Positions 2,189-13,400 of a stretch of DNA of 13,403 nt are shown piece after piece. Every line of letters starts with the position of its first letter. The stretch's first letter is position 1. The notes beneath the pieces were generated by a model that was not told the origin of the DNA, searched no databases, and was given only the letters and a program-made list of their open reading frames with translations. Source of the stretch: a virus; the IMG/VR virus record IMGVR_UViG_3300006072_001582, one strand, 5' to 3'. The translations under genes and the position numbers were made by a program.

Positions 2189-3304
2189 ATGTTCAACAGC
2201 AGAGAAGCTGCAAAACACGATAAGCAATTCAAGACTGGCGGACCTGCCAACGCTATGACGCTTATCTTCCAAGAGGGTACTGGCTACGCCACCCACAAGG
2301 AAGACCCTGAGTACTATCATGTGCCTCATGCTGCTGAGAAAGCCGCTAATCACTACATAGGTAGCCTTGGTGAGGGCGAAGAGCCCAATCCTGACGCAGT
2401 GCGTTTGTTTGGCTTGAAGCAAAGCAAAAAGGGCGACTGGTATCACAGTCGCGCTCACTCGCAGCTTGCCAACGTTAAAACCGCAAGTGACTACATGACC
2501 GTTGCTGTTCGCAACAAGACCACTGGTAAGCCTTACAAGCTCGAGCAGGGTATCCATCAACCTACTATGATGATTGCTCCCAGCGAAGAGGGCCACCTGG
2601 ATGATCGTGCTTTCCGTGCCGGTGAACACGTGAATGCAAAGACTGGTGAGCGTTTGATGGTCCACCCACTCTCAGCTTTGGGCCAATCGCACATTGAAAC
2701 GATCATGGCATTCAACGAGGGTAAGCGTAATGGCATCAAGGACCCTAAGTTCTACCGAGATGCCATGAAAACTGTCAGTGATCACACCCATGGTGACCTT
2801 GCAGTGCACCACGCATTCAACCACACCATCAATAACATGTGCAATACGCACGATGCTATCGATCCTGTTGAGCAAAATGTCATCGATCAGGGTAAAACTG
2901 CCCGTTTTGTTAAGTGTTTCTGCCCATACTGCGTTGTAAATGACAGTACTCACCCCACAAACCAGCTTTGGGACATGCAACACCACGAAGAAGCAGCCAA
3001 AAGAACTCAAGATCCCAAGATTAGAGCCGCTTATTTCGCTGGTTTCCCCGTTTCTAAGGAAGCTGGAGAGTTTGGTAAGGTCGGAAGACGTTCACACCAC
3101 CGTGTTTTGTATGGTACGAAGGCTGAACAGACCATTATCAACCACCATGTCAACTTTAGACAGGACGAAGACAACCATGCAGCTGTAGTTGCACCAAGAG
3201 TACGTCATCGTGCGAGAGGTGGAGAGGGTGTTTCTCACCTTTACAGTCCTTCAACAGCTATAAATAGAGCTGTTCACGCTGATGATAGCTACTCTGGCGA
3301 ATAA
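2189..3304 (+). CDS. hypothetical His-rich protein (371 aa) containing a CFCPYC motif
   Basis: Long ORF with an AGGAG RBS at 2176-2180, 8 nt before the ATG. No recognisable catalytic motif. Many His and HH pairs suggest metal binding. Confidence 0.75.
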   Translation: MFNSREAAKHDKQFKTGGPANAMTLIFQEGTGYATHKEDPEYYHVPHAAEKAANHYIGSLGEGEEPNPDAVRLFGLKQSKKGDWYHSRAHSQLANVKTASDYMTVAVRNKTTGKPYKLEQGIHQPTMMIAPSEEGHLDDRAFRAGEHVNAKTGERLMVHPLSALGQSHIETIMAFNEGKRNGIKDPKFYRDAMKTVSDHTHGDLAVHHAFNHTINNMCNTHDAIDPVEQNVIDQGKTARFVKCFCPYCVVNDSTHPTNQLWDMQHHEEAAKRTQDPKIRAAYFAGFPVSKEAGEFGKVGRRSHHRVLYGTKAEQTIINHHVNFRQDEDNHAAVVAPRVRHRARGGEGVSHLYSPSTAINRAVHADDSYSGE

Positions 3305-3769: not shown

Positions 3770-4191
3770 TGACCGTCGAAGAACACGACCAGAACATCAC
3801 TCATCATTACACCGTTCACTATCCACCTCACCCAGAGCGTGAAGATGACCCACATTACGTCGATTTTCACCATTTCCGTGAGAAAACGAAGGCAACAGCT
3901 AAATGTGCTATCGGTGAACACCGCAATGACTTCAGTGAGTGCGACTCTGAGCACCCTTTGGAGCTTCACCACACTCATATTGAGTTCTCATTGCAGAATG
4001 GCGTCGATCTTAAGTGGCTCGAAGTCGATTACCCCGGCGTTAGCGACCCAGACACCGTTGGTGCATGGGTAGAGAGCGCAACAAACCTGGAATGGCTATG
4101 CCTTTTCCACCACAGAGGTCATGGTGGCAAACACGTCACAGCTTACAGTGACTTTGAGGCAGCAAAATACGTGAGAGGACTCATCAAATGA
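3769..4191 (+). CDS. His-rich HNH-like nuclease fold protein (140 aa)
   Basis: The sequence ...CAIGEHRNDFSEC...LELHHTHIEFSLQNGVDL...ATNLEWLCLFHHRGHGGKH fits the HNH pattern: C...C, HH, N, then N-L-x-x-L-C-x-x-H-H...H. It is translationally coupled at both ends (TAATG at 3767, ATGA at 4188). Confidence 0.55.
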   Translation: MTVEEHDQNITHHYTVHYPPHPEREDDPHYVDFHHFREKTKATAKCAIGEHRNDFSECDSEHPLELHHTHIEFSLQNGVDLKWLEVDYPGVSDPDTVGAWVESATNLEWLCLFHHRGHGGKHVTAYSDFEAAKYVRGLIK

Positions 4192-4379
4192 GTAATTGGT
4201 CTAAAAGATACGCAGCAGAAAGCTGTTCATGCCATGGCTGGCCTAAACTGCAATGCCCTAACACTACTGAAGCAGAAAAACACATTATTTCTGAACTGAG
4301 TAGACAAGAAGGGCCATCTATTGGACAAGAACACTCACGCAGTAAAGAAGTAGCCGATTGGATCCTTGGAGAAGATTAA
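4188..4379 (+). CDS. small Cys-containing protein (63 aa), paralog 1 of the N-terminal WSKRYAAE-motif family
   Basis: N-terminus MSNWSKRYAAES, then SCSCHGWPKLQCP. The start overlaps the upstream stop (ATGA) and the stop overlaps the next start (TAATG). Confidence 0.7.
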   Translation: MSNWSKRYAAESCSCHGWPKLQCPNTTEAEKHIISELSRQEGPSIGQEHSRSKEVADWILGED

Positions 4380-4834
4380 TGAATTGGAAAAGAAGATACG
4401 CAGCTGAAGATACCTTTGGTTATGGTGATCCACACTACTTTGAGAAGCTGATTGATCACGCCAACTCAGGCAACCCCAAGCTTATTCAAAAGAAGCATGT
4501 TGATGATGCTAGGCGACACGGTATTACCGAAGACGAAATGATGCATGCCTATACCCAGGGTCACAATATCAGTTTATATGTTAGTGCACGTGCACGCAAT
4601 GATCCATGGCTTGGTGGCCCAGAAGCTTTAGAGCCCAGACTGCTAGCTACACATGATGAAGCGATTGACGCTCTCAACAAAAATGTTATTCCCAATCACT
4701 ATAGCTTGCTTAGATCAGTTGGAGAAACAATAGTCAATGGACGTCATAACCCCAACCCAACACCGCTGAGCCACGATGCTGCTGTAGCAAAATCAGGCAA
4801 GATGACTCCGTCAGAACGACAGAAATACTTCTAA
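4379..4834 (+). CDS. hypothetical protein (151 aa), paralog 2 of the WSKRYAAE-motif family
   Basis: N-terminus MNWKRRYAAED. I prefer the start at ATG 4379 over the upstream in-frame ATG 4358 because it reproduces the paralog N-terminus and has GGAGAAG 6 nt upstream. TAATG overlap at both ends. Confidence 0.7.
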   Translation: MNWKRRYAAEDTFGYGDPHYFEKLIDHANSGNPKLIQKKHVDDARRHGITEDEMMHAYTQGHNISLYVSARARNDPWLGGPEALEPRLLATHDEAIDALNKNVIPNHYSLLRSVGETIVNGRHNPNPTPLSHDAAVAKSGKMTPSERQKYF

Positions 4835-5202
4835 TGTCTTGGTCAGAACGTTACGCTGCTCGTCCTGACCAATGTCAGCTCTGTGGTGCATCAGATGATG
4901 GCACCCACACAATCGTTAGCAGCGGTAGGTGCAAAGACACTACCGATTGCGAGAACACGCAGAAGTACTTAGCAGAGAACCCACAGCCAGAGCCTCCTAA
5001 GAAAACTAGGAAAGCACCTTACGTAGACCGCAAGGGTATGGCTGCATGTGCTCATGGCGACTGCCAAGGTAAGAAGTACGAAGCAAAATACATGCATTGG
5101 TCTGATTCTTCAGTGCCAAGGCCATATTGCAACACTCACTCGTTCCTTGCAGGCAAAACTGGTTTGACTTTTAGTCAATGGAAAGATGTTTATGGGAGAT
5201 AA
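4834..5202 (+). CDS. Cys-rich basic protein (122 aa), paralog 3 of the WSKRYAAE-motif family
   Basis: N-terminus MSWSERYAARPD, then CQLCG...GRCKDTTDC...CAHGDCQGKKY...YCNTH. TAATG overlap with the upstream gene. Confidence 0.7.
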   Translation: MSWSERYAARPDQCQLCGASDDGTHTIVSSGRCKDTTDCENTQKYLAENPQPEPPKKTRKAPYVDRKGMAACAHGDCQGKKYEAKYMHWSDSSVPRPYCNTHSFLAGKTGLTFSQWKDVYGR

Positions 5203-5204
5203 TA

Positions 5205-5933
5205 ATGACTGATCGTATTGTTGGTAAATTAGGTAAGCTAGATCCTAAGCGCCCTGCTGGGTTGCACATGCTTGCTTTCTATCAGGGCAACCCGTTGCCA
5301 GCTGCACCAGAGAGCGTAGCAGTGCCAAACGTAGATAATTGGGGAATGTTAGGAAATGATAAATATGGGGATTGTACTTTTGCTGGTATTGTTCACGCCA
5401 GAATGGCTAACGCTGCTTTCTTACAACTTACAGAAGGATTCCCTTCTGACACCGAAGTCGAGCAAAGTTATCTCAATTATACGAATGGACAAGATGCTGG
5501 AGCGGTCGAGGCGGACCTACTAAAGTACTGGCAGACCAACGGCTTGTTCAACACAAAGCTTGCTGCGTTCGCCCCTACTGACCATGCTGACCTTGATGAG
5601 CTCCGTAGCGTAATTGCCTCATATGGGCTTGTATACATTGGTGTAAAGCTCCCAGTCACCTTCCAGCAGCAATTCCTTGACAACCAGCCATGGGACCTTA
5701 CAGGCACTCCTGCTGACAATCAGATCGAAGGTGGCCACTGTGTCATCCTCGTAGGTTACGACAAGGACTACGCTGAATGTATTACCTGGGGTAAAGTGCA
5801 GAAGGTAACGTGGAGATGGCTGCAAAGCTACATGGAAGAGAGCTGGGCTCTCATCACTCCAGAGATTGTTGAAAAGGGTCAATATGGCGATATGCGCCTT
5901 GAAGACCTCACTACTGACCTAGGAAAACTATAA
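5205..5933 (+). CDS. papain-like (C1-type) cysteine peptidase, 242 aa
   Basis: Motif order and spacing are as in the papain fold. They are NDKYGDC-TFAG (Asn/Gln six residues before the catalytic Cys), GGHCVILVGYD (compare papain HAVAAVGY) and ECITWGKV (compare NSWG). I prefer the start at ATG 5205 (GGGAGA 7 nt upstream) over the in-frame ATG 5178, which overlaps the previous gene. Confidence 0.55.
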   Translation: MTDRIVGKLGKLDPKRPAGLHMLAFYQGNPLPAAPESVAVPNVDNWGMLGNDKYGDCTFAGIVHARMANAAFLQLTEGFPSDTEVEQSYLNYTNGQDAGAVEADLLKYWQTNGLFNTKLAAFAPTDHADLDELRSVIASYGLVYIGVKLPVTFQQQFLDNQPWDLTGTPADNQIEGGHCVILVGYDKDYAECITWGKVQKVTWRWLQSYMEESWALITPEIVEKGQYGDMRLEDLTTDLGKL

Positions 5934-7012
5934 TGGCTACTATCCCACCAAGACTTAATGAGATCCTTGAAGAACAAGGTGACAAGGTTCGAATTGTTGC
6001 TAACGTTGGCCCAATGCAATACAAGACTGGTGGCACGTTCTCTGGTCTTCTTGTTGAAGCAATGGTTGGAGACGAAAGAATCGGTTATTTCACTGCTGAA
6101 AAGCAAGCTAGTGGCAACTACATCATGGATGGTGTTTACGTCGAGCCAGAATACCGAAACCAAGGCATTGCAACAGAAATGCTGCGCAAAGCGCACGCAA
6201 CTGTTAACGTTATTCCTTATGCATTGACAGATAACCAAGTTTACCAGTCAGAAGCTGGTAAGGGGTTCGCTGCTAAGGAACTTCGCATGGTCACAGCAAG
6301 CACAATTGTGACTGCTGGTCCTCTTCTTGCTATCCCAGAGCTTCTTGGTGCTGGAGAAGCAGTCGCTGGCGCTGGAGAGGCCGCTGCAGGTGCAGAAGGT
6401 GGTGGCCTTAGCGATGCATTGAAGAACTTGCCTAGTAGCAACTCAAGCGGTAATGAAAATGGCGACAATAGCAATGATATCAACAATACGCCAGATTCTG
6501 GTGGTGGACAGAGCTTTGCAAGCCCTGCTAACCCCGTAGTTGGTAGCATCATGCCTCTCGAGACTCACCCATTGGCTCCTACTAAGCCAATCACAGTTCC
6601 ACCTTTCACTGTTCCTGGTAAGCCATCAAAGACTCCTCCTAGCACACCACAACCATCTCCCACAACTTGGCAGCCAGCTCCTAAAACAATTGGTGATAAA
6701 ACAGAAGCTATGCCAGAACCTTCTCTTGAAGAAGAAACTTCTACTAAGAGTGAGCAAGAGACTAGTAACCCACCACAACAGAAAACTAAGCTTGAAACTG
6801 GTCAAGAACCAATGCCTACAAAGCAAACGCCAGAAAAAGGGTCATCTGGTCCTGGAGCAGGAATTAACCTTGAGCTTAATTTCCCACAAACTATATCTAA
6901 CTTCCCAACGCCAGCTCGACCAATCACTGGTAGCAGCAATAGATTAATTGATTTGTTGAATGAAGATCGTTTCAATTCAACTAACAATGACAAACCAACC
7001 AGCTGGGAATAA
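5933..7012 (+). CDS. N-terminal GNAT-family acetyltransferase-like domain (about 125 aa) fused to a long Pro/Thr/Ser/Gly/Glu-rich tail (about 230 aa) predicted to be disordered
   Basis: GNAT motif A is recognisable: VYVEPEYRNQGIATEMLRKA, matching V-x-V-x-P-E-x-R-x-x-G-I-A. The rest of the protein is GAGEAVAGAGEAAAGAEGGG, NSSGNENGDNSNDINN, PPFTVPGKPSKTPPSTPQPSPTTWQPAPK and similar. TAATG overlap with the upstream peptidase gene. Confidence 0.55.
   Translation: MATIPPRLNEILEEQGDKVRIVANVGPMQYKTGGTFSGLLVEAMVGDERIGYFTAEKQASGNYIMDGVYVEPEYRNQGIATEMLRKAHATVNVIPYALTDNQVYQSEAGKGFAAKELRMVTASTIVTAGPLLAIPELLGAGEAVAGAGEAAAGAEGGGLSDALKNLPSSNSSGNENGDNSNDINNTPDSGGGQSFASPANPVVGSIMPLETHPLAPTKPITVPPFTVPGKPSKTPPSTPQPSPTTWQPAPKTIGDKTEAMPEPSLEEETSTKSEQETSNPPQQKTKLETGQEPMPTKQTPEKGSSGPGAGINLELNFPQTISNFPTPARPITGSSNRLIDLLNEDRFNSTNNDKPTSWE
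6314..7009 (+). other. low-complexity coding segment (Pro/Thr/Ser/Gly/Gln/Glu-rich) within the 5933-7012 gene
   Basis: Translation is dominated by P, T, S, G, E, Q, N with no hydrophobic core. The shadow ORFs 6241-6552(-), 6540-6947(+) and 6626-6826(-) arise from this region. Confidence 0.6.
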
Positions 7013-7047: not shown

Positions 7048-8328
7048 ATGAGATACGCTACGCAGGATAACGGTAATTACGGAGACGATGCTTCGCTACG
7101 AGGCATTGAAGACGCTACCGAAGAAGACGATGCAGGGTTTGGCCTTCCAGGACAAAGCCAAGTCGGTACTGTTGGCCACTTTAGATTTGCAGACATTGGT
7201 AACGAAGACGAAAACTCTACGAGATTGACTGCTTTGGGCGATGAGCCTAAGGATACAATTGATCTCGAGGGGCAACCACCAGTTGTAAGCAATGAAGGGC
7301 TTTCTAGCGTATCTCCAGGATCGCTATCAACAATTATTGGAGCAAACATGAGCATGAATGCAAGAATTGCATACGTGATGGAGAATGGTGAGCCATTCTG
7401 TAATCACTGCGAAAAGACATACTTCCCAGGAACACGCATTGCATGCACAAATTGTGGTTGCAACCAGCCTGCTAATGACCACGGCATTGGCGAAAATAAC
7501 TTCTCGGGTGAGAGCCTTACAACAGTAGAAGGCCCTACTGCTGGCGACCTTGATGCTGGGCGTGACATCGTTAAGGAAGAAGCCAAGATGGGTGCCGCTG
7601 GTGCTTTCTACGCTATGTTCAAAGAAGCTAACGACAGTGAGCTTTACTACCAAGGCTACGGCGATGCACAAGCCGGTAAGCCAATGGACGAGGATCTTGC
7701 CCTCTTGAGCAAGGACTACTACAACGGTTACACACAATACAAGTTCTACAACAAGACCCCTCAGCAGAGCGAAGGTCAAAGCTTGTATGACATTAAACCA
7801 AATAGCAACTTAATTCCTCGTTCACACGATATGACACCTGGCGAAGCTGATCGTGGTCCTCTTGAGCTGACTGATGGTTTTGGTCACGCCACTGCATCCA
7901 AGCAAGCCGGTATGTATGATGCTGCACACATGTTCATGGATCGTAAAGACTCCCAAAAGGATGATACCAATAACTATCATGCAACTTTGCGTGATAATCA
8001 CCTCAATGCTGCTAACAAGTTGCAGGGTAACACTCCATGGACAGGAAGAACAAACTCCGATGGTTCTCCAGAGTTTCATGGTGCTGATACTTTCCATGGT
8101 AACAACCCTGATCACAGAGAAGCTTACTTCGCACACATGGATGCAGCAGAAGCACATGGAAAAGCTATAGCGACTCCTGGAACTGGCATGAACTACAACA
8201 AAGCTAAAAACAATGCAGATGTTGCTTCTAGAGCAGCTTGGGCAAAAGACCCAACGAACCCACCTGCTGCAAGAACTTCATCTATCGGTCTCCCCGTTGA
8301 TGTTCTCGAAAAGTTCTTTAGGTTCTAA
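7048..8328 (+). CDS. hypothetical protein (426 aa) with an internal Cys4 zinc-ribbon (CNHCEKTYFPGTRIACTNCGC)
   Basis: Long ORF. The first ATG is at 7048 (N-terminus MRYATQDNGNYGDD). No recognisable enzymatic motif. It is rich in Asp/Asn/Gly/Tyr. Confidence 0.7.
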   Translation: MRYATQDNGNYGDDASLRGIEDATEEDDAGFGLPGQSQVGTVGHFRFADIGNEDENSTRLTALGDEPKDTIDLEGQPPVVSNEGLSSVSPGSLSTIIGANMSMNARIAYVMENGEPFCNHCEKTYFPGTRIACTNCGCNQPANDHGIGENNFSGESLTTVEGPTAGDLDAGRDIVKEEAKMGAAGAFYAMFKEANDSELYYQGYGDAQAGKPMDEDLALLSKDYYNGYTQYKFYNKTPQQSEGQSLYDIKPNSNLIPRSHDMTPGEADRGPLELTDGFGHATASKQAGMYDAAHMFMDRKDSQKDDTNNYHATLRDNHLNAANKLQGNTPWTGRTNSDGSPEFHGADTFHGNNPDHREAYFAHMDAAEAHGKAIATPGTGMNYNKAKNNADVASRAAWAKDPTNPPAARTSSIGLPVDVLEKFFRF

Positions 8329-8329
8329 T

Positions 8330-8980
8330 ATGGAAAAATGTTTTATATGCAGAAAGGGTGAGCTTGTTAGAACATCTAGCAAGGCTGGCCCAGAAATCTA
8401 TTGCAATGGTTGCCGCCGCGTAATTCTTAGCTCATATCTTGGTTTTAGCATCACTGCTGCCAATATTAAGAACGAGCTGAGAGAATGCACTATTGAAACT
8501 GCAGAAGGCACTAAGCCTGGCTGGAAGGGTCCTGGAGACAGAGCCAAGTGTCACCCATACGAGCCTGGTCAAAAGGAAAGTGAAGAAGATGCACTTGATA
8601 AGGCAGCTGATTCAGTTTACTCTTGGAGACACCGCAAGGGTGCATCAAAGATCGTTAACGCACTTGCTTATTTTGAAGGTGCTCCCGATCTGATTGTCCC
8701 ACAGGCAGCAAGCTCACAGAACTTTGCCAACAACGGTCCTAACCCAGCTCCTCCTTCGGGAAAATCACAAGATTTTTCTGCCACTAACCAAAGTCCTATT
8801 GGCCAAGCTACTGCTCCCAATGACCTTCAACCCGGTGAGCTGAATGGTGCTAACCCATTGAATAGTGGTACTACTGCTAGCAAGAAGCTAGCCGAGTTGC
8901 TTTCAGAAGAGTTGGGCCCTAGTTTTTGCACAGAACATATGACACACGATGAATGTAATCATAGCCGTAACGCGCAATAG
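8330..8980 (+). CDS. hypothetical protein (216 aa) with an N-terminal zinc-ribbon (CFICRKG-x16-CNGCRR)
   Basis: ATG at 8330, 1 nt after the upstream stop (8326-8328). The upstream extension to 8213 offered by the ORF track would overlap the previous gene by 116 nt and was not adopted. Confidence 0.65.
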   Translation: MEKCFICRKGELVRTSSKAGPEIYCNGCRRVILSSYLGFSITAANIKNELRECTIETAEGTKPGWKGPGDRAKCHPYEPGQKESEEDALDKAADSVYSWRHRKGASKIVNALAYFEGAPDLIVPQAASSQNFANNGPNPAPPSGKSQDFSATNQSPIGQATAPNDLQPGELNGANPLNSGTTASKKLAELLSEELGPSFCTEHMTHDECNHSRNAQ

Positions 8981-9007
8981 TGTTTGAGGAAAAAGAAAGA
9001 TTCCATT

Positions 9008-9718
9008 ATGAACTACGAAAATATTGAGATTGAAGCCAAGACCGCAGCTGCTGATGCACGCTGGTTTAATGGTACCTCAGAGAGCATCTTGACACGTCTT
9101 GACAGGCTGCAGGACATTCTGGACAAGACTCGTATGGCTGCTAGCAACCCTAACGTTGGTCAAAGAGAGATCGAGCGCTATGCTAACATCATCACCGAGC
9201 TTGGTGCTGAGAAGGAATCGCTCGAGAAGCTGGCTTCAGAGTACGTTGACTTTGACACTGAGGACTACCTCAATAGCTTGCCTGGTGGCACAATTGCTAA
9301 GGAATATCGCGTTAGCAGTGCTGGCACAAGTGACCTTGGCGAAGACGATGGCAGCCTTTTGTACCGTACAGCTGCTGGCATTGAGAACGAGTTTGAGTCA
9401 GCTGACTGGATCAACTTCGTTACCGCTGGTGCTGAGGTTTGGGTCGAAGACCAACACAACCGCCTTCTGGGCAGCCAGCTTGACACACGTGAAGCTGCTG
9501 TTTACTACGTAGAGCGTAAGACGCTTCCTATCCTTGACACTGTAAAGCGTGCATCTATCATTGAAAACTTTGTTGACAATGTAGAGATTTGCCGTCGTGC
9601 TAAGAACGAGGGTGCAGGCTTCCGCAGCATCAAGAGTGCTAGCGCAAACAAGCTGTCTGCTCGCCTTGTTGAGCAATCAATTGATGAGTCGTTCGGAGAT
9701 GGCCTTAACTGGCTGTAA
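9008..9718 (+). CDS. hypothetical protein (236 aa)
   Basis: Long ORF. ATG 9008 is preferred over the in-frame TTG at 8984. A purine-rich stretch (GAGGAAAAAGAAAGA) lies upstream. No recognisable motif. Confidence 0.65.
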   Translation: MNYENIEIEAKTAAADARWFNGTSESILTRLDRLQDILDKTRMAASNPNVGQREIERYANIITELGAEKESLEKLASEYVDFDTEDYLNSLPGGTIAKEYRVSSAGTSDLGEDDGSLLYRTAAGIENEFESADWINFVTAGAEVWVEDQHNRLLGSQLDTREAAVYYVERKTLPILDTVKRASIIENFVDNVEICRRAKNEGAGFRSIKSASANKLSARLVEQSIDESFGDGLNWL

Positions 9719-9720
9719 CA

Positions 9721-10242
9721 ATGGACAATTGGAATGGCTTTAGAGTCGTCAGTGCAACAGAAGTAGAAGACGACACTAGAAACCCAGAATATGAAGAAGA
9801 TGTTAGTGATTTGGTCACTGCTCTGAAAAGAATGCTTGCTGAAGCATACGTTCTCTATCACACTATTCATGGTTTCCACTGGAATGTTGTTGGTAATGAC
9901 TTCTATCAATATCACAAGTTCTTTGATGAGATCGTAGATGATATCTACGAAAACATTGACCCAATTGCAGAAAACATCAGAAAGCTTGATGCTAAAGCTC
10001 CTTTTGTAATGAGCCAATTGTCTGGACTTAGTAGAATTAAAGAAGTAGGTTCTAACGATGATGATGCACGTAATCTTGCTAAGCAATTCTTAGATATGAA
10101 TAACGAATACATTGATCACATTAAAAAGGTCTTTGTTCTTGCTGACAAAGATAACGAGCAAGGTATTGCAAACTTCATTGCTGAACGCATTGATCAACAC
10201 CAAAAGTGGAGTTGGTTCTTGAAGGCGTCTACCGAGGCATAA
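9721..10242 (+). CDS. dps: Dps-like / ferritin-superfamily protein (173 aa)
   Basis: Strong match to the Dps signature: LYHTIHGFHWNVVGNDFYQYHKFFDEIVDDIYENIDPIAENIRKL (compare Dps Y-x-K-x-H-x-FHW-x-V-x-G-x-x-F-x-x-x-H-x-x-F-E-E...D-x-IAERI). The C-terminal ADKDNEQGIANFIAERIDQHQKWSWFLKA also resembles the Dps helix-D region. The ferroxidase-site residues (His and Asp/Glu) are present. Confidence 0.8.
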   Translation: MDNWNGFRVVSATEVEDDTRNPEYEEDVSDLVTALKRMLAEAYVLYHTIHGFHWNVVGNDFYQYHKFFDEIVDDIYENIDPIAENIRKLDAKAPFVMSQLSGLSRIKEVGSNDDDARNLAKQFLDMNNEYIDHIKKVFVLADKDNEQGIANFIAERIDQHQKWSWFLKASTEA

Positions 10243-10472
10243 TGGATTCTGTAACAGAGAACATTGGCAACGTAGTCGCTTTGATGACAGCAATCATCAG
10301 CGGCCAAGAGGAACTAGCTTATGAAATGGTCCTCGAGAGTGATCCCATCCAACTCTTCAGCTCACTTGCTGGTGTTATGATGGTGTTTATCAATAAACTA
10401 TCAAGCGTAAATGGGATCACCCCAGAAGAGTGCCTAAAGAACTTGGCACTTGTAGCTTACAAAGCTAACTAA
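10242..10472 (+). CDS. hypothetical small protein (76 aa)
   Basis: ATG 10242 overlaps the upstream stop (TAATG). ORF MDSVTENIGNVVALMTAIISGQEELAYEMVLESD... Predicted helical and acidic. Confidence 0.55.
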   Translation: MDSVTENIGNVVALMTAIISGQEELAYEMVLESDPIQLFSSLAGVMMVFINKLSSVNGITPEECLKNLALVAYKAN

Positions 10473-10474
10473 AT

Positions 10475-10771
10475 ATGGCATTAGAATTACCTGAAGGTAT
10501 TACGTACAACGATAATATTTCTAACGAAATAGAACTAGAATTTGTAAACGAAGTTGTAAATGATACAAAATGTAACGTATGTGACTTGCATTTTCAAGCT
10601 TCACTCGTTACAATTAATAACAAGCACGAAGGTATCGTAAAAACGTTACCTAGTGAAATTATCCTGTGGAAGAACGTTTTGCCAAAGGATCGCGTTAGAT
10701 GCATAAAAATGATCAACGAGACTCTCATTGCAAAACTTGATAAACACAAGGAAAGGCATAGCAATGATTAG
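10475..10771 (+). CDS. hypothetical small protein (98 aa) with a CNVC motif
   Basis: ATG 2 nt after the upstream stop. ORF MALELPEGITYNDN...KCNVCDLHF... Confidence 0.6.
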   Translation: MALELPEGITYNDNISNEIELEFVNEVVNDTKCNVCDLHFQASLVTINNKHEGIVKTLPSEIILWKNVLPKDRVRCIKMINETLIAKLDKHKERHSND

Positions 10772-10928
10772 ATACAGCAACAAGCCAGATAAGAATGCCC
10801 GCGTCATCACAGATAGCCCTACTTCAACAATTAAGACAACTAAGGACGTAGCTGGTCTTAATGATGAAGATAAGCCTAGCGAGAACTATAGAGACTTGCA
10901 GGATCTTGATGCAGAGGACCAGAACTAA
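10764..10928 (+). CDS. hypothetical small acidic protein (54 aa)
   Basis: ATG 10764 with AAGGAAAGG upstream. It overlaps the previous gene by 8 nt (ATGATTAG). The in-frame ATG at 10728 is an alternative start. ORF MIRYSNKPDKNARVITDSP...DLDAEDQN. Confidence 0.45.
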   Translation: MIRYSNKPDKNARVITDSPTSTIKTTKDVAGLNDEDKPSENYRDLQDLDAEDQN

Positions 10929-10936
10929 GGAATAGT

Positions 10937-11803
10937 GTGACGAATAGCTCTGTCGAGAAAGACCCAGCAACACACATCGTTATCCCGGACACCCAAGCTA
11001 AAGATGGGGTCCCAACCGACCACCTCACTTGGATCGGTAACTATATTGTAGAAGAGTTCCACAACCAAGATGTGAAGATCATTCACCTTGGTGACCACGC
11101 TGATATGCCAGCCCTTTCAATGTACGATAAGGGTAAGAAGAGCATGGAGGGTCGTCGTGTCAAAGCAGACATTGAAGCTGCCAATGAACACTGGCACATC
11201 CTAAACCAGCCTCTTTATGACTATAACGAAAACAAGCGTAAGTCTAAGCATGCTATCTGGAACCCAGAGCGTCACATTCTTCTTGGTAACCACGAAGATC
11301 GTATCAACCGTGCAACAGAGATGGATGCACAGATTGATGGCCTATTTAGCACAGATGACCTTGACTATGCCCGTAGCGGTTGGAGAGTTAGCCCATTCAA
11401 GCACATTCTTTGGCTTGATGGTGTAGCTTACAGTCACTTCTTTTATAACCCTATGACGGGAAACCCCTATGGTGGTACGATTGATGCTCGTCTGAAGAAT
11501 ATCGGCCACTCATTTACTATGGGTCACCAACAAACGTTCCTTTATGGCATGCGTTACGTAAATGGTGGAAGAGATGAGAATGATGCGTTCTCACAGCATG
11601 GCCTTGTAGCCGGTGCTTGTTACCTGCACGATGAAAACTACAAGGGACCACAAGGCAATGCTCACTTTAGAGGTATTGTCGTTAAGCATGGTGTCCAAAA
11701 CGGTAGTTATGACATCCAGCAGATTTCACTTGACTCTTTGTGCCGTAGATATGAGGGAATGAGCCTCGAACGGTTTAAAAAGCTCAAGTATCCGCGTATG
11801 TAG
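10937..11803 (+). CDS. calcineurin-like metallophosphoesterase (288 aa)
   Basis: Ordered metallophosphoesterase motifs are present. They are VIPDTQ (motif I, D-x-Q variant of D-x-H), IHLGDHADMP (G-D-x-x-D), LLGNHED (G-N-H-E), then GHSFTMGH and AGACYLHD. The start is the GTG at 10937, preceded by AAGGAA. There is no in-frame ATG before the first motif. Confidence 0.65.
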   Translation: MTNSSVEKDPATHIVIPDTQAKDGVPTDHLTWIGNYIVEEFHNQDVKIIHLGDHADMPALSMYDKGKKSMEGRRVKADIEAANEHWHILNQPLYDYNENKRKSKHAIWNPERHILLGNHEDRINRATEMDAQIDGLFSTDDLDYARSGWRVSPFKHILWLDGVAYSHFFYNPMTGNPYGGTIDARLKNIGHSFTMGHQQTFLYGMRYVNGGRDENDAFSQHGLVAGACYLHDENYKGPQGNAHFRGIVVKHGVQNGSYDIQQISLDSLCRRYEGMSLERFKKLKYPRM

Positions 11804-11806
11804 TAT

Positions 11807-12868
11807 ATGGCATCTGCAAATACTCCTCAGCGCAAGAACTTTCGCTGCGTCTTTAACCGTTATGTCTCAGAATATAACAAGGACGCAGTCGTTCGTTCAA
11901 TCATGTCGCAGTTCGAAGGATACTTTGCTGATCCTGAAGTTACTTTGATGGATGATGGGTTTATCCTATCTCTTCAACTTGGTGATAACCTTTCAGCTAC
12001 GATGGCAAGAGACAAGATTCTCTGGAACCAGTTCGTAGAGAGCGTAACTGCTGCTGATGCCATCCGTAAGATACAAATCATCCGTTTACCTAAGGCTGGC
12101 AAAGAGAATGAGGGCACCGTAGGCGCCTGGGGGCCACACGGCAGTGATTCTGGTGTTGATGAGAAGCTTAACGTACCACTAGACCACGATCCACAATACA
12201 CGATCGGTCCTAATGAAGACGGATCGCTTGGTTGGCATGCTAGCGTACACTACGCTGACCCAACCAGTGAAATCTTGCCAACTGTCTATGGTCCAGGTGC
12301 TGAAGAAAGCCAACCTGTTGACGAAGACACCCCAAGTGACATTACTGACATGGATAGTGATGGAGCTACCCCTCTAGACGGTGGTGCACCAGCTAAGAAT
12401 CACCCAAAACTGTTTATGGGTTTCAAGATCGTTGCTATTGACAGCGATACTGGTGGTGCTTTCACTCTTAACCGACCAAACGAGTTCCAGAGTGTCAATG
12501 ATGCTCCTCGAGACGGTGGGCTTCACCAAGAAGCCACTCCAGCTACTGGTATTGGTGGTGGAGCTCCAATTAGTGGTGCTAGCTGGTACGTAACGCAACC
12601 TGGGAACGAACAAGGTACAGATTTGGGTACTGAGCGAGTCAAAAGCGATGCTTCAGCTGCTCCATTCGGGAACATTGCCGTTGGTAGCAGAACTGTAGAT
12701 GAGCCAATCGAAGAAGACGTTGAAAGTGCTGTTGACCTGCCACAAGCACGTGGTGGTGGTCAGTCTGTGCCAGATGGTGGTGCAGTAGAGGGCTGGTTCG
12801 CCAGTAATCACTTTGGTTTGAATGAAACATATGGATATGAAGGTGATGTAGATGACTACGACATATAA
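11807..12868 (+). CDS. hypothetical protein (353 aa) with a globular N-terminal half and a Gly/Asp/Pro/Ala-rich acidic C-terminal half
   Basis: Long ORF, ATG 3 nt after the upstream stop. The C-terminal half has repeated GGAP / GGGAP / GGGQSVPDGG stretches. Confidence 0.65.
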   Translation: MASANTPQRKNFRCVFNRYVSEYNKDAVVRSIMSQFEGYFADPEVTLMDDGFILSLQLGDNLSATMARDKILWNQFVESVTAADAIRKIQIIRLPKAGKENEGTVGAWGPHGSDSGVDEKLNVPLDHDPQYTIGPNEDGSLGWHASVHYADPTSEILPTVYGPGAEESQPVDEDTPSDITDMDSDGATPLDGGAPAKNHPKLFMGFKIVAIDSDTGGAFTLNRPNEFQSVNDAPRDGGLHQEATPATGIGGGAPISGASWYVTQPGNEQGTDLGTERVKSDASAAPFGNIAVGSRTVDEPIEEDVESAVDLPQARGGGQSVPDGGAVEGWFASNHFGLNETYGYEGDVDDYDI

Positions 12869-13400
12869 GGTATATGCCGCAGGACAAGACCCAACAAAGT
12901 ATGTACCAGGTGACTTCATCCTGGTTTCATCTAAGGGCATTCTAGCTAAGTTCATTCGTTTTGGTCAATTCATCCGTTACCACGGAAAGATGAAGCCTTT
13001 TGCTCATTGGAACCATGCAGCTATGATCATCGATGAAGGTGGAACCATCGTTGAGGCTGTTGGCCGTGGTGTTATCGTAAGCAACATTAGTGAATACAAA
13101 GACGTAGAGTATTACTACGTTACAACAAAGCTTAACAAGCAAAGCCGTGATCAAACGGTTTCTGCTTGCAAGAGCTTCATTAAGGATAAGTATGGTTTCC
13201 TAACCATCTTGAGTATTGCCTTGGAGTTGCTGACTGGTATTAAGATGCAGTTCACAAATAGCAACACCATGATTTGTAGTGCCGTAGTAGCACAATCCTT
13301 GTGGGCAGGCGGCATTGTATTCGACCGCAACCCTTACCAAATGATGCCAGCTGATCTTGCTGCTTCTTTCAATATTTTGACAGAATTGCCAAATAATTGA
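12852..13400 (+). CDS. putative permuted NlpC/P60-superfamily (YiiX/YaeF-like) hydrolase, 182 aa
   Basis: A His motif (FAHWNHAAMIIDEGG) precedes a Cys-Ser motif (NTMICSAVVAQSLWAGG). This is the His-before-Cys order and the C-S dipeptide typical of permuted papain-fold YiiX/YaeF-type proteins. The start overlaps the upstream gene by 17 nt. Confidence 0.45.
   Translation: MTTTYKVYAAGQDPTKYVPGDFILVSSKGILAKFIRFGQFIRYHGKMKPFAHWNHAAMIIDEGGTIVEAVGRGVIVSNISEYKDVEYYYVTTKLNKQSRDQTVSACKSFIKDKYGFLTILSIALELLTGIKMQFTNSNTMICSAVVAQSLWAGGIVFDRNPYQMMPADLAASFNILTELPNN

Follow-up and report, generated by a model that had tools for sequence, protein, structure and literature searches.

In this article, we focus on a gene of the Dps family found at positions 9721 to 10242 of a 13,403-nucleotide (nt) stretch of viral DNA, the IMG/VR virus record IMGVR_UViG_3300006072_001582, which at its full length we call the window. 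This gene encodes a bona fide Dps with all four ferroxidase ligands, it carries at its N-terminus a peptide that is conserved in its family, and it lies in a conserved block of tailed-phage genes in which it is, as far as gene order and divergence can tell, an old and fixed member. We particularly consider where its product would act, in the cytoplasm of the infected cell or in the phage head. The gene and its parts are the following.

9721..10242, plus strand: Dps gene, an open reading frame (ORF) from ATG to TAA with 173 codons and a stop at exactly these ends
9721..9756, plus strand: conserved N-terminal peptide, residues 1-12, MDNWNGFRVVSA
9757..9810, plus strand: acidic linker, residues 13-30, variable in length and sequence within the family
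9811..10236, plus strand: Dps core, with helices A (31-55), B (61-88), BC (97-103), C (116-143) and D (147-172), assigned by DSSP on the AlphaFold2 model
9877..9882, plus strand: codons CAC and TGG of the ferroxidase ligand H53 and of W54, both conserved in 120/120 relatives of at least 50% identity
9913..9915, plus strand: codon CAC of the ferroxidase ligand H65, conserved in 120/120
9958..9972, plus strand: D80-P-I-A-E84, which supplies the Asp (GAC, 119/120) and Glu (GAA, 120/120) ligands from the partner subunit

The preliminary description, made from the letters of the window, had called this gene a Dps, and every line of searching agrees with it. The Pfam family PF00210 (Ferritin) matches residues 34-169 with 71.8 bits for a cut-off of 24.5 (E=7.3e-20), and PHROG 3636, which is the phage Dps family and is labelled 'DNA binding protein', matches residues 26-171 over positions 3-147 of its 149 (E=1.3e-29). 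A search of the protein against the sequences of the PDB gives 54 matches, all of them to members of the Dps family or to chimeras engineered from Dps, and those to PA0962 of Pseudomonas aeruginosa (8ff9, E=1e-19) and to the NAP of Helicobacter pylori (HP-NAP) rank highest. The AlphaFold2 model, a monomer computed from an alignment of 61 family sequences, has an overall predicted local distance difference test score (pLDDT) of 88.7, with values of 89-99 in the core blocks (residues 31-170), and it has the small extra helix typical of Dps within the long connection from B to C, with no fifth (E) helix. Compared with the PDB by Foldseek, its top 50 matches are all of the Dps family and are mostly described as Dps dodecamers, with a root-mean-square deviation (rmsd) mostly of 1.1-1.6 Å and a template modelling (TM) score, normalised on the target, of 0.76-0.93. 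The ExxH di-iron motif that marks the intrasubunit site of ferritins is absent from the sequence, and neither ferritins nor bacterioferritins nor the four-helix bundles of DUF families, to which the protein might otherwise have belonged, are among the matches of the profile, sequence and fold searches. All the hallmarks of a Dps that sequence or fold can test are thus present, and the ORF is confirmed as a bona fide Dps. From this fold and from the conservation of the ligands at the subunit interface, we infer that it would form a dodecamer.

The ferroxidase site is conserved throughout the family. In HMMER and MAFFT alignments, H53, H65, D80 and E84 correspond to H25, H37, D52 and E56 of HP-NAP and to H51, H63, D78 and E82 of Escherichia coli Dps, and W54 to W26 and W52, respectively; the two reference sequences of the MAFFT alignment reproduce the published residue numbering. 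This is the alignment that the preliminary description had proposed as a check, and the two His, the Asp and the Glu all match. The motifs that it quoted are also there, H50-G-F-H53-W54-N-V-V-G58, H65-K-F-F-D69-E70 and I153-A-E-R-I157, but the last of them belongs to helix D and does not supply the ligands; the motif that does so in the window Dps is D80-P-I-A-E84-N-I. The same four ligands are invariant across 79 long proteins in which a Dps domain is fused to other modules, and which we examine below. Because the catalytic residues are invariant, a real ferroxidase chemistry can be argued for, and the window Dps is apparently an active, catalytically competent ferroxidase, whose best-supported role would be the sequestration of iron together with the detoxification of H2O2.

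Ahead of this core, the family carries an N-terminal motif, M-x-x-[W/L]-[N/E]-[G/N]-F-R-[V/T/I]-[V/F], or in short [W/L]-N-G-F-R-V-V, in which F7 is found in 117/117 and R8 in 109/117 of the ungapped family members, and which is absent from both E. coli Dps and HP-NAP. The codons of this peptide differ synonymously between loci (GGT, GGC, GGA or GGG for Gly; AGA, CGA, AGG or CGT for Arg), so that the selection bears on the peptide rather than on the DNA. The model is of low confidence there (pLDDT of about 60) and falls below 50 at residues 12-25, where the acidic linker begins. A conserved terminal peptide under selection at the protein level, followed by a disordered acidic linker, resembles the layout of known cargo signals, and the simplest reading that this suggests is that of a docking peptide on a flexible tether. 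We searched the other gene starts of the lineage for a peptide of this W-x-F-R type, and none was convincing; when the head proteins of the lineage were checked for it, none shared it.

The charge of the protein bears on another expected function of a Dps. Among residues 1-30, there are 2 Arg and 10 Asp or Glu but not a single Lys, which brings this segment to a net charge of -8. For the subunit as a whole, the net charge is -15 and the isoelectric point (pI) 4.65 (the family median is 4.99), and the C-terminal tail is minimal, with 2 residues past helix D. The condensation of DNA by E. coli Dps relies on its Lys-rich N-terminus, and the Dps proteins in which the tail is absent or immobilised, as in Listeria and Agrobacterium, are not known to bind DNA. 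Because its tail is acidic and lysine-free, its pI is 4.65 and a C-terminal tail is absent, an E. coli-style condensation of DNA by the window Dps is unlikely on sequence grounds, and the role in DNA compaction that had been put forward for it is poorly supported.

The conserved block and its phage lineage

The Dps gene is part of a set of co-directional genes, the main members of which are given here.

7048..13400, plus strand: co-directional conserved block including Dps, with the gene order retained on IMG/VR contigs at 30-92% protein identity to the window
9008..9718, plus strand: upstream partner gene of 236 amino acids (aa), predicted all-alpha, with 2 nt separating its stop TAA from the ATG of Dps
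10242..10771, plus strand: two small conserved downstream genes, of 76 aa and 98 aa, with no Pfam or PHROG family match
10242-10472, 10475-10771 and 10764-10928: small unknown genes past Dps, the first two being the 76-aa and 98-aa genes
10937..11803, plus strand: phage-type metallophosphoesterase (PHROG 221, E=4.9e-41)

The flanks are as the preliminary description had them, with small unknown genes and a metallophosphoesterase, the latter being 41-46% identical to the annotated phosphoesterases of 495 phage records. The stop of Dps overlaps the ATG of the first downstream gene (TAATG), and the 76-aa and 98-aa genes are each kept in 31-32 of 34 related loci. On the other side, the upstream 236-aa protein has no match in Pfam, in the PHROGs or in the phage records, and its AlphaFold2 model is poor (pLDDT 61). 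When IMG/VR loci are fetched with this upstream gene alone, Dps lies directly 3' of it in 39 of 41, with a gap between the two tblastn alignments of 3-47 nt in 38 loci and of 200 nt in one; the 2 loci without an adjacent Dps are the most divergent ones. This test of a core gene is built on loci obtained via the upstream gene, those fetched via the portal gene reaching back just 10 kb. In P0243, a protein from metagenomes, Dps is joined to the domain of this upstream protein in two copies (32% identity, E=2e-20), which makes the 236-aa protein the prime candidate for a partner on which the N-terminal peptide of Dps would dock.

The phage nature of this block can be read from longer contigs. At least 22 metagenome contigs encode an identical Dps protein amid identical neighbours, and relatives turn up on 29 IMG/VR contigs, the longest of which measures 122.8 kb. 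This longest one carries a Dps that is 81% identical to that of the window. In the same orientation, some 16 kb past this Dps, it encodes a portal (PHROG 2833, E=2.7e-164) that is about 40% identical to the portals of Cluster C mycobacteriophages and Gordonia phages; farther along, it encodes a major capsid protein that is 64% identical to Cluster C mycobacteriophage capsids. Because portal and major capsid genes share a contig with such a close Dps, the window is part of a tailed phage akin to the Bxz1/Myrna-type (Cluster C) actinophages, and the phage-type block that had been proposed from the window is confirmed by its surroundings. The longest contigs of the lineage cluster at about 118-143 kb, which gives uncultured freshwater tailed phages of roughly 120-140 kb, whose host would by inference be an actinobacterium. 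No Dps is detectable in the cultured Cluster C phages, and the whole window has no match by megablast against 50,697 phage records, so the lineage is without a close cultured relative.

The relation of this Dps to those of cells is a distant one, with 31% identity to that of P. aeruginosa, 27% to HP-NAP and 19% to that of E. coli. Two exact signature peptides of the clade were searched in 185,579 species genomes of GTDB (one per species), and they retrieve two loci only, at 40-45% identity, a result which shows rarity in cellular genomes rather than an absence of cellular relatives. Both loci lie on contigs binned as bacterial metagenome-assembled genomes (MAGs), and one of them, L035, itself encodes a phage capsid protein. 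Among the nearest short representatives, ten were found in metagenomes only. In a neighbour-joining tree, the window family is monophyletic and nested in a large Dps radiation, sampled here solely from phage and metagenomic sequences, and across IMG/VR contigs the protein diverges (44-85% identity) in step with its neighbours. Because the gene order is conserved with parallel divergence, and 39 of the 41 loci fetched by a neighbour carry it, Dps is on this evidence an old, fixed and phage-specific gene of the lineage and not a recent acquisition. The recent capture from a host that had been envisaged is therefore not borne out by the tree, the gene order, these loci or the 19-31% identity to cellular Dps.

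Dps domains in head proteins and the place of action

We carried out an exhaustive search for Dps relatives among 1.84 billion representatives, and the nearest Dps domains (40-51% identity) are mostly embedded in long proteins. About one third of the nearest long ones are fused to prohead proteases or to other head-assembly modules. Within the set of 79 long proteins, Pfam Peptidase_S78 is found in 20 and PHROG 80 ('head maturation protease') in 26, 10-11 match major-head-protein families and ten match a portal family, while others match MuF, Mu-like protease or XkdF. Our local S78 profile is narrow and detects 8-10 of the 20-26 protease fusions seen by Pfam and PHROG, so the 'S78' labels of the tree are undercounts. 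At four IMG/VR loci, the S78 and Dps domains are encoded together in a single ORF, without interruption, over 1,664-1,847 codons, and UniProt and BFVD hold 'Prohead protease' proteins of uncultured phages with a Dps domain 37-40% identical to that of the window. Some 60 related protease-encoding loci have no Dps domain, which makes Dps an optional insert. PDB sequence searches with the fusion proteins P0351, P0271, P0328 and P0249 recovered the Dps domain and no partner domain, and our literature searches found nothing on prohead protease-Dps fusions, nor anything relevant on Dps in freshwater actinophages or on viral Dps as an auxiliary metabolic gene.

Two loci bring a Dps close to head genes. 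In L035, a stand-alone Dps lies directly 3' of a capsid gene that is 63% identical to the capsid gene of the lineage, and in L034, a distant phage contig, the neighbours of Dps are the large terminase on one side and an XkdF protease on the other. The Dps and the protease of L034 begin with the same leader, MSWRFRDDSPIGA, which we considered as a shared protein signal and then downgraded to a possible regulatory repeat, because the DNA itself is repeated there, perfectly over 61 nt, with no synonymous differences and with 20 nt ahead of the ORF included. The two copies of this direct repeat, at 9909-9969 and 10497-10557, cover these 20 nt and the first 41 nt of the ORF; they may be a regulatory element common to both genes, or else the product of a recent duplication.

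Other architectures were seen among viral Dps proteins (P0268, P0274, P0286, P0339, P0242, P0244). The core may be preceded by a zinc ribbon or by a zinc finger of the DnaJ-like CxxCxGxG type, P0241 is a tandem Dps-Dps protein, and several stand-alone Dps of another lineage carry a different conserved N-terminal leader, MSIV.KQ.EPD.

The explanation that we favour, and which we consider fairly probable, is that of a vertically inherited lineage gene whose product is a catalytic Dps guarding the phage DNA during infection, in the infected-cell cytoplasm, with its N-terminal peptide tethering the dodecamer to a partner. The subunits would assemble into a hollow shell of twelve, a mini-ferritin, at the two-fold interfaces of which Fe(II) would be bound by H53 and H65 from one side and by D80 and E84 from the neighbouring subunit; this iron would be oxidised, preferentially by H2O2, and then stored as a ferric core. 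Both Fenton reagents would be removed in this way and the phage DNA would be protected, packaged DNA being beyond repair. The partner of the tether would be foremost the translationally coupled upstream protein. Even in this conservative form, iron and oxidative stress would be a significant selective pressure on these freshwater phages. Several observations weigh against such a scheme or limit it. The frequent fusion of close relatives to head proteins suggests that the site of action is possibly the procapsid and not the cytoplasm. The only NCBIfam models that match the window Dps are Dps models, and each stays under its equivalog cut-off (61.9 bits for 170 with NF041388 DpsA-Halo, 49.5 for 114 with NF006975 Dps, 35.0 for 300 with NF052461 DpsA-Cyano), so that, by these scores, the protein is a member of the superfamily and not an ortholog of the named cellular Dps subfamilies. 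Certain acidic Dps still bind DNA via cation bridges. Finally, a scan for sigma-70 promoters showed no enrichment, with 13 sites where 18 were expected, with a consensus that may not be that of the host.

The fusions make a head-associated Dps the alternative to be weighed most carefully, and we regard it as possible, if rather unlikely. The N-terminal peptide would then target the procapsid, and the protein would protect the packaged DNA from iron and peroxide or aid the assembly of the head. This would account for the protease, major-head, portal, MuF and XkdF matches of so many of the nearest long Dps proteins, for the uninterrupted S78-Dps ORFs and the 'Prohead protease' database entries, for the vicinity of Dps to the capsid gene in L035 and to the terminase and XkdF protease in L034, and for the terminal peptide on a disordered linker, a layout of the window Dps that resembles that of known cargo signals. 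However, the head association holds for the relatives and is not shown for the window Dps, which in its lineage stands alone, about 16 kb upstream of the portal and outside the head module, among genes for enzymes (metallophosphoesterase, amidase-like protein, acetyltransferase). The N-terminal peptide has no counterpart in the head proteins of the lineage, the shared leader of L034 is a DNA repeat with a possibly regulatory nature, and the related proteases often do without Dps, as seen in their approximately 60 loci. In addition, a dodecamer of about 9 nm would be too large to exit via the tail. The more specific proposal that the procapsid is loaded via the [W/L]NGFRVV peptide, and in the relatives via fusion to protease or scaffold, so that HK97-fold shells would come to hold an iron-oxidising mini-ferritin and the packaged DNA be spared Fenton damage, is a tentative one that we deem slightly less likely still. 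If the protein did act in or on the capsid, the particles would carry their own defence against iron and peroxide, and with such a cargo the heads would be the viral equivalents of encapsulins loaded with ferritin, to which they might be related by descent; the proposed parallel between the procapsid scaffold and encapsulin cargo would gain a concrete and testable example.

The remaining explanations fare less well than a guard of the phage DNA. A Dps of the nucleoid type, which would bind and compact the phage or host DNA in the cell or once packaged, has in its favour the name of the family, the label 'DNA binding protein' of PHROG 3636 and of the phage records, and the tails with a net charge of +1 or more that occur in 12 of 121 relatives, in other sub-clades. 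With the lysine-free first 30 residues at net -8, the acidic subunit and just 2 residues beyond helix D, we hold it to be very improbable here. We give hardly any weight to the possibility that a bacterial stress gene is on the contig by chance, through recent capture or through mis-binned cellular DNA. Dps is indeed ubiquitous among bacteria, and the two GTDB loci are in bacterial-MAG contigs; yet one of these encodes a phage capsid protein, the scan with the signature peptides and the comparison with characterised Dps gave no cellular relative above 45% identity, the start and the stop of Dps are coupled to the phage genes on either side, and the identical protein on at least 22 contigs, the parallel divergence and the 39 of 41 independently fetched loci all point to a resident phage gene. 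The purely structural use of the Dps shell, as a hub or scaffold of assembly with no iron chemistry, would fit the relatives that are fused to scaffold and protease modules, and it seems to us just as far-fetched: the four ligands and the Trp are invariant in the stand-alone family and in the 79 fusions, which is hard to explain without catalysis. Throughout the radiation, the catalytic site is retained, even though its members have repeatedly been built into head-maturation proteases and head-assembly proteins.

Other features of the window and related loci

Many otherwise unrelated small proteins of the block start with a shared peptide, M-(x)-N-W-[N/S]-x-R-Y-A-[A/S/G]-E, of which MSNWSKRYAAE, MNWKRRYAAE and MSWSERYAAR are examples among 30 distinct gene starts. 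In the window, it is carried by the genes at 4188-4379, 4379-4834 and 4834-5202, and in a weaker form by those at 1417-2082 and 7048-8328; in the relatives, it is found at L032 4634-5775, L006 5824-6536, L018 3833-5162 and L040 8209-11140. Because its codons vary synonymously (CGT, AGA, CGC, CGA and CGG for Arg) and the upstream DNA is not conserved, the selection bears on the peptide itself. The internal proteins of phage T4 share a capsid-targeting leader, and these arrays resemble such proteins. A second leader motif, (K/T)-F-N-S, is found mostly on larger proteins, as in the window gene at 2189-3304 (MFNSREAAK) and at L008 2064, 4326 and 14700, L032 2560, 15134 and 17272, L037 13296 and L040 7887. 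One gene start, MKRTFNSRYAHG, is a hybrid of the two motifs, which suggests that the leaders are related.

The arrays of the first leader always lie just upstream of a conserved gene, at 5205-5933 in the window, which encodes a protein of 242 aa (PHROG 19005, E=2.7e-29, no Pfam match) and is downstream of the leader arrays in every locus examined; its GDCTFAG and GGHCVILVGYD segments resemble, by eye, a papain-like Cys/His pair. It is followed at 5933-7012 by a protein with a GNAT acetyltransferase domain at residues ~35-90 (Pfam E=2e-6) and a low-complexity tail of ~250 residues rich in Pro, Thr and Ser. The last gene, at 12852-13400, matches PHROG 1128 (E=1e-18) and is conserved in 26 of 34 related loci, and its match to C92, a family of permuted papain-like amidases (YaeF/YiiX), is weak and below the cut-off (E=1.6e-4). 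At the other end of the window, the minus-strand gene at 200-568 encodes an Ala-rich protein made of 21-nt (heptad) repeats in 11 copies, and a perfect 48-nt direct repeat, at 100-147 and 548-595, spans the gene start and its ribosome-binding site, which points to a paralogue in tandem that continues beyond the left end of the window. A sigma-70 consensus match of 11/12 (TTGACA-16-TATCAT) lies at 9534-9561, inside the upstream partner gene and about 160 nt before the Dps start, with the reservation that this consensus may not be that of the host.

Some related loci also carry genes of sugar-nucleotide and heptose pathways, either a few kb past the Dps block (L001 10596-15922, L006 15158-19032) or directly upstream of Dps (L034 7787-9915); these include a split transketolase, a PfkB kinase, an epimerase, a cytidylyltransferase, a SIS isomerase, a nucleotidyltransferase and a cupin. 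The match to the 780-aa portal spans 3.2-3.5 kb instead of 2.3 kb in L154, L174, L176-L182, L184-L190 and L192, which implies an insertion in the portal gene (an intein, an intron or a homing endonuclease), and HNH endonucleases are frequent at these loci.

Comparison with known systems

The cellular proteins that most resemble the window Dps are those of the type of HP-NAP, P. aeruginosa PA0962 and V. cholerae Dps (1ji4, 8ff9 and 3iq1). They share with it the four-helix bundle with the BC helix, a similar core length and the inter-subunit H-H-D-E ligands with their Trp; the chains of HP-NAP and V. cholerae Dps superpose with an rmsd of 1.3-1.5 Å and that of 8ff9 with about 3 Å, for TM scores of 0.83-0.93 (target-normalised). 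The window Dps differs from them by its low identity (27-31%), by its scores under the NCBIfam equivalog cut-offs, by its additional N-terminal extension of 30 residues ([W/L]NGFRVV and acidic linker), and by being phage-encoded and paired with a phage-only partner gene. E. coli Dps (1dps) has the equivalent ligands H51, H63, D78 and E82 and W52, at 19% identity, but its tail is Lys-rich (net +3) and mediates the condensation of DNA, whereas that of the window Dps is Lys-free with a net charge of -8.

Outside its own family, the window Dps is closest (37-51% identity) to the Dps domains in the fusions to prohead proteases of uncultured Caudovirales (such as P0248, P0257, P0279, P0303; A0A6J7XDU5, A0A6J7WIS1, A0A6J7WPK9), with which it has in common the clade signatures IDPIAENI.KL and NEQGIANF.AERID.HQKW. 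In these fusions, Dps is covalently embedded inside head-assembly polyproteins, whereas the window Dps is a separate protein of 173 aa, encoded far from the head genes. Two further systems are comparable by analogy only. The internal proteins of T4 have a short terminal capsid-targeting sequence on a flexible linker, and the encapsulins with a ferritin-like cargo place an HK97-fold shell around an iron-oxidising four-helix-bundle protein; the cargo of encapsulins is EncFtn or Flp rather than Dps, and it usually has a C-terminal peptide. A preprint of 2025 speculates that procapsids could hold cargo-like enzymes (10.1101/2025.06.18.659913).

Among phages, Dps proteins are known as PHROG 3636 and from the Lactobacillus phages Semele and LP65, the gut 'Gratiaviridae', the Synechococcus phage S-SRM01, the Aeromonas LAh phages, C. 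tetani phages and Bacillus phage G. The preliminary description had called a virus-encoded copy uncommon, which is correct for cultured phages, where we find it in 25 of 50,697 records (~14 distinct phages), but not for uncultured ones, in which Dps is abundant and already catalogued (PHROG 3636; PMC8008677; PMC6669764). These earlier Dps, from other lineages and habitats and at most about 35% identical to that of the window, are likewise stand-alone, and a role in oxidative stress or iron was proposed for those of gut and Lactobacillus phages (PMC8008677; PMC6669764). Neither an N-terminal peptide that is conserved, nor a fixed partner, nor a link to head fusions was described for any of them. 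Phage Dps is thus already documented, until now as a gene that is auxiliary and only occasional, but a lineage in which it is a fixed gene, with an N-terminal peptide and a fixed partner, and part of a radiation of Dps domains that were repeatedly fused to head-assembly proteins, is undescribed.

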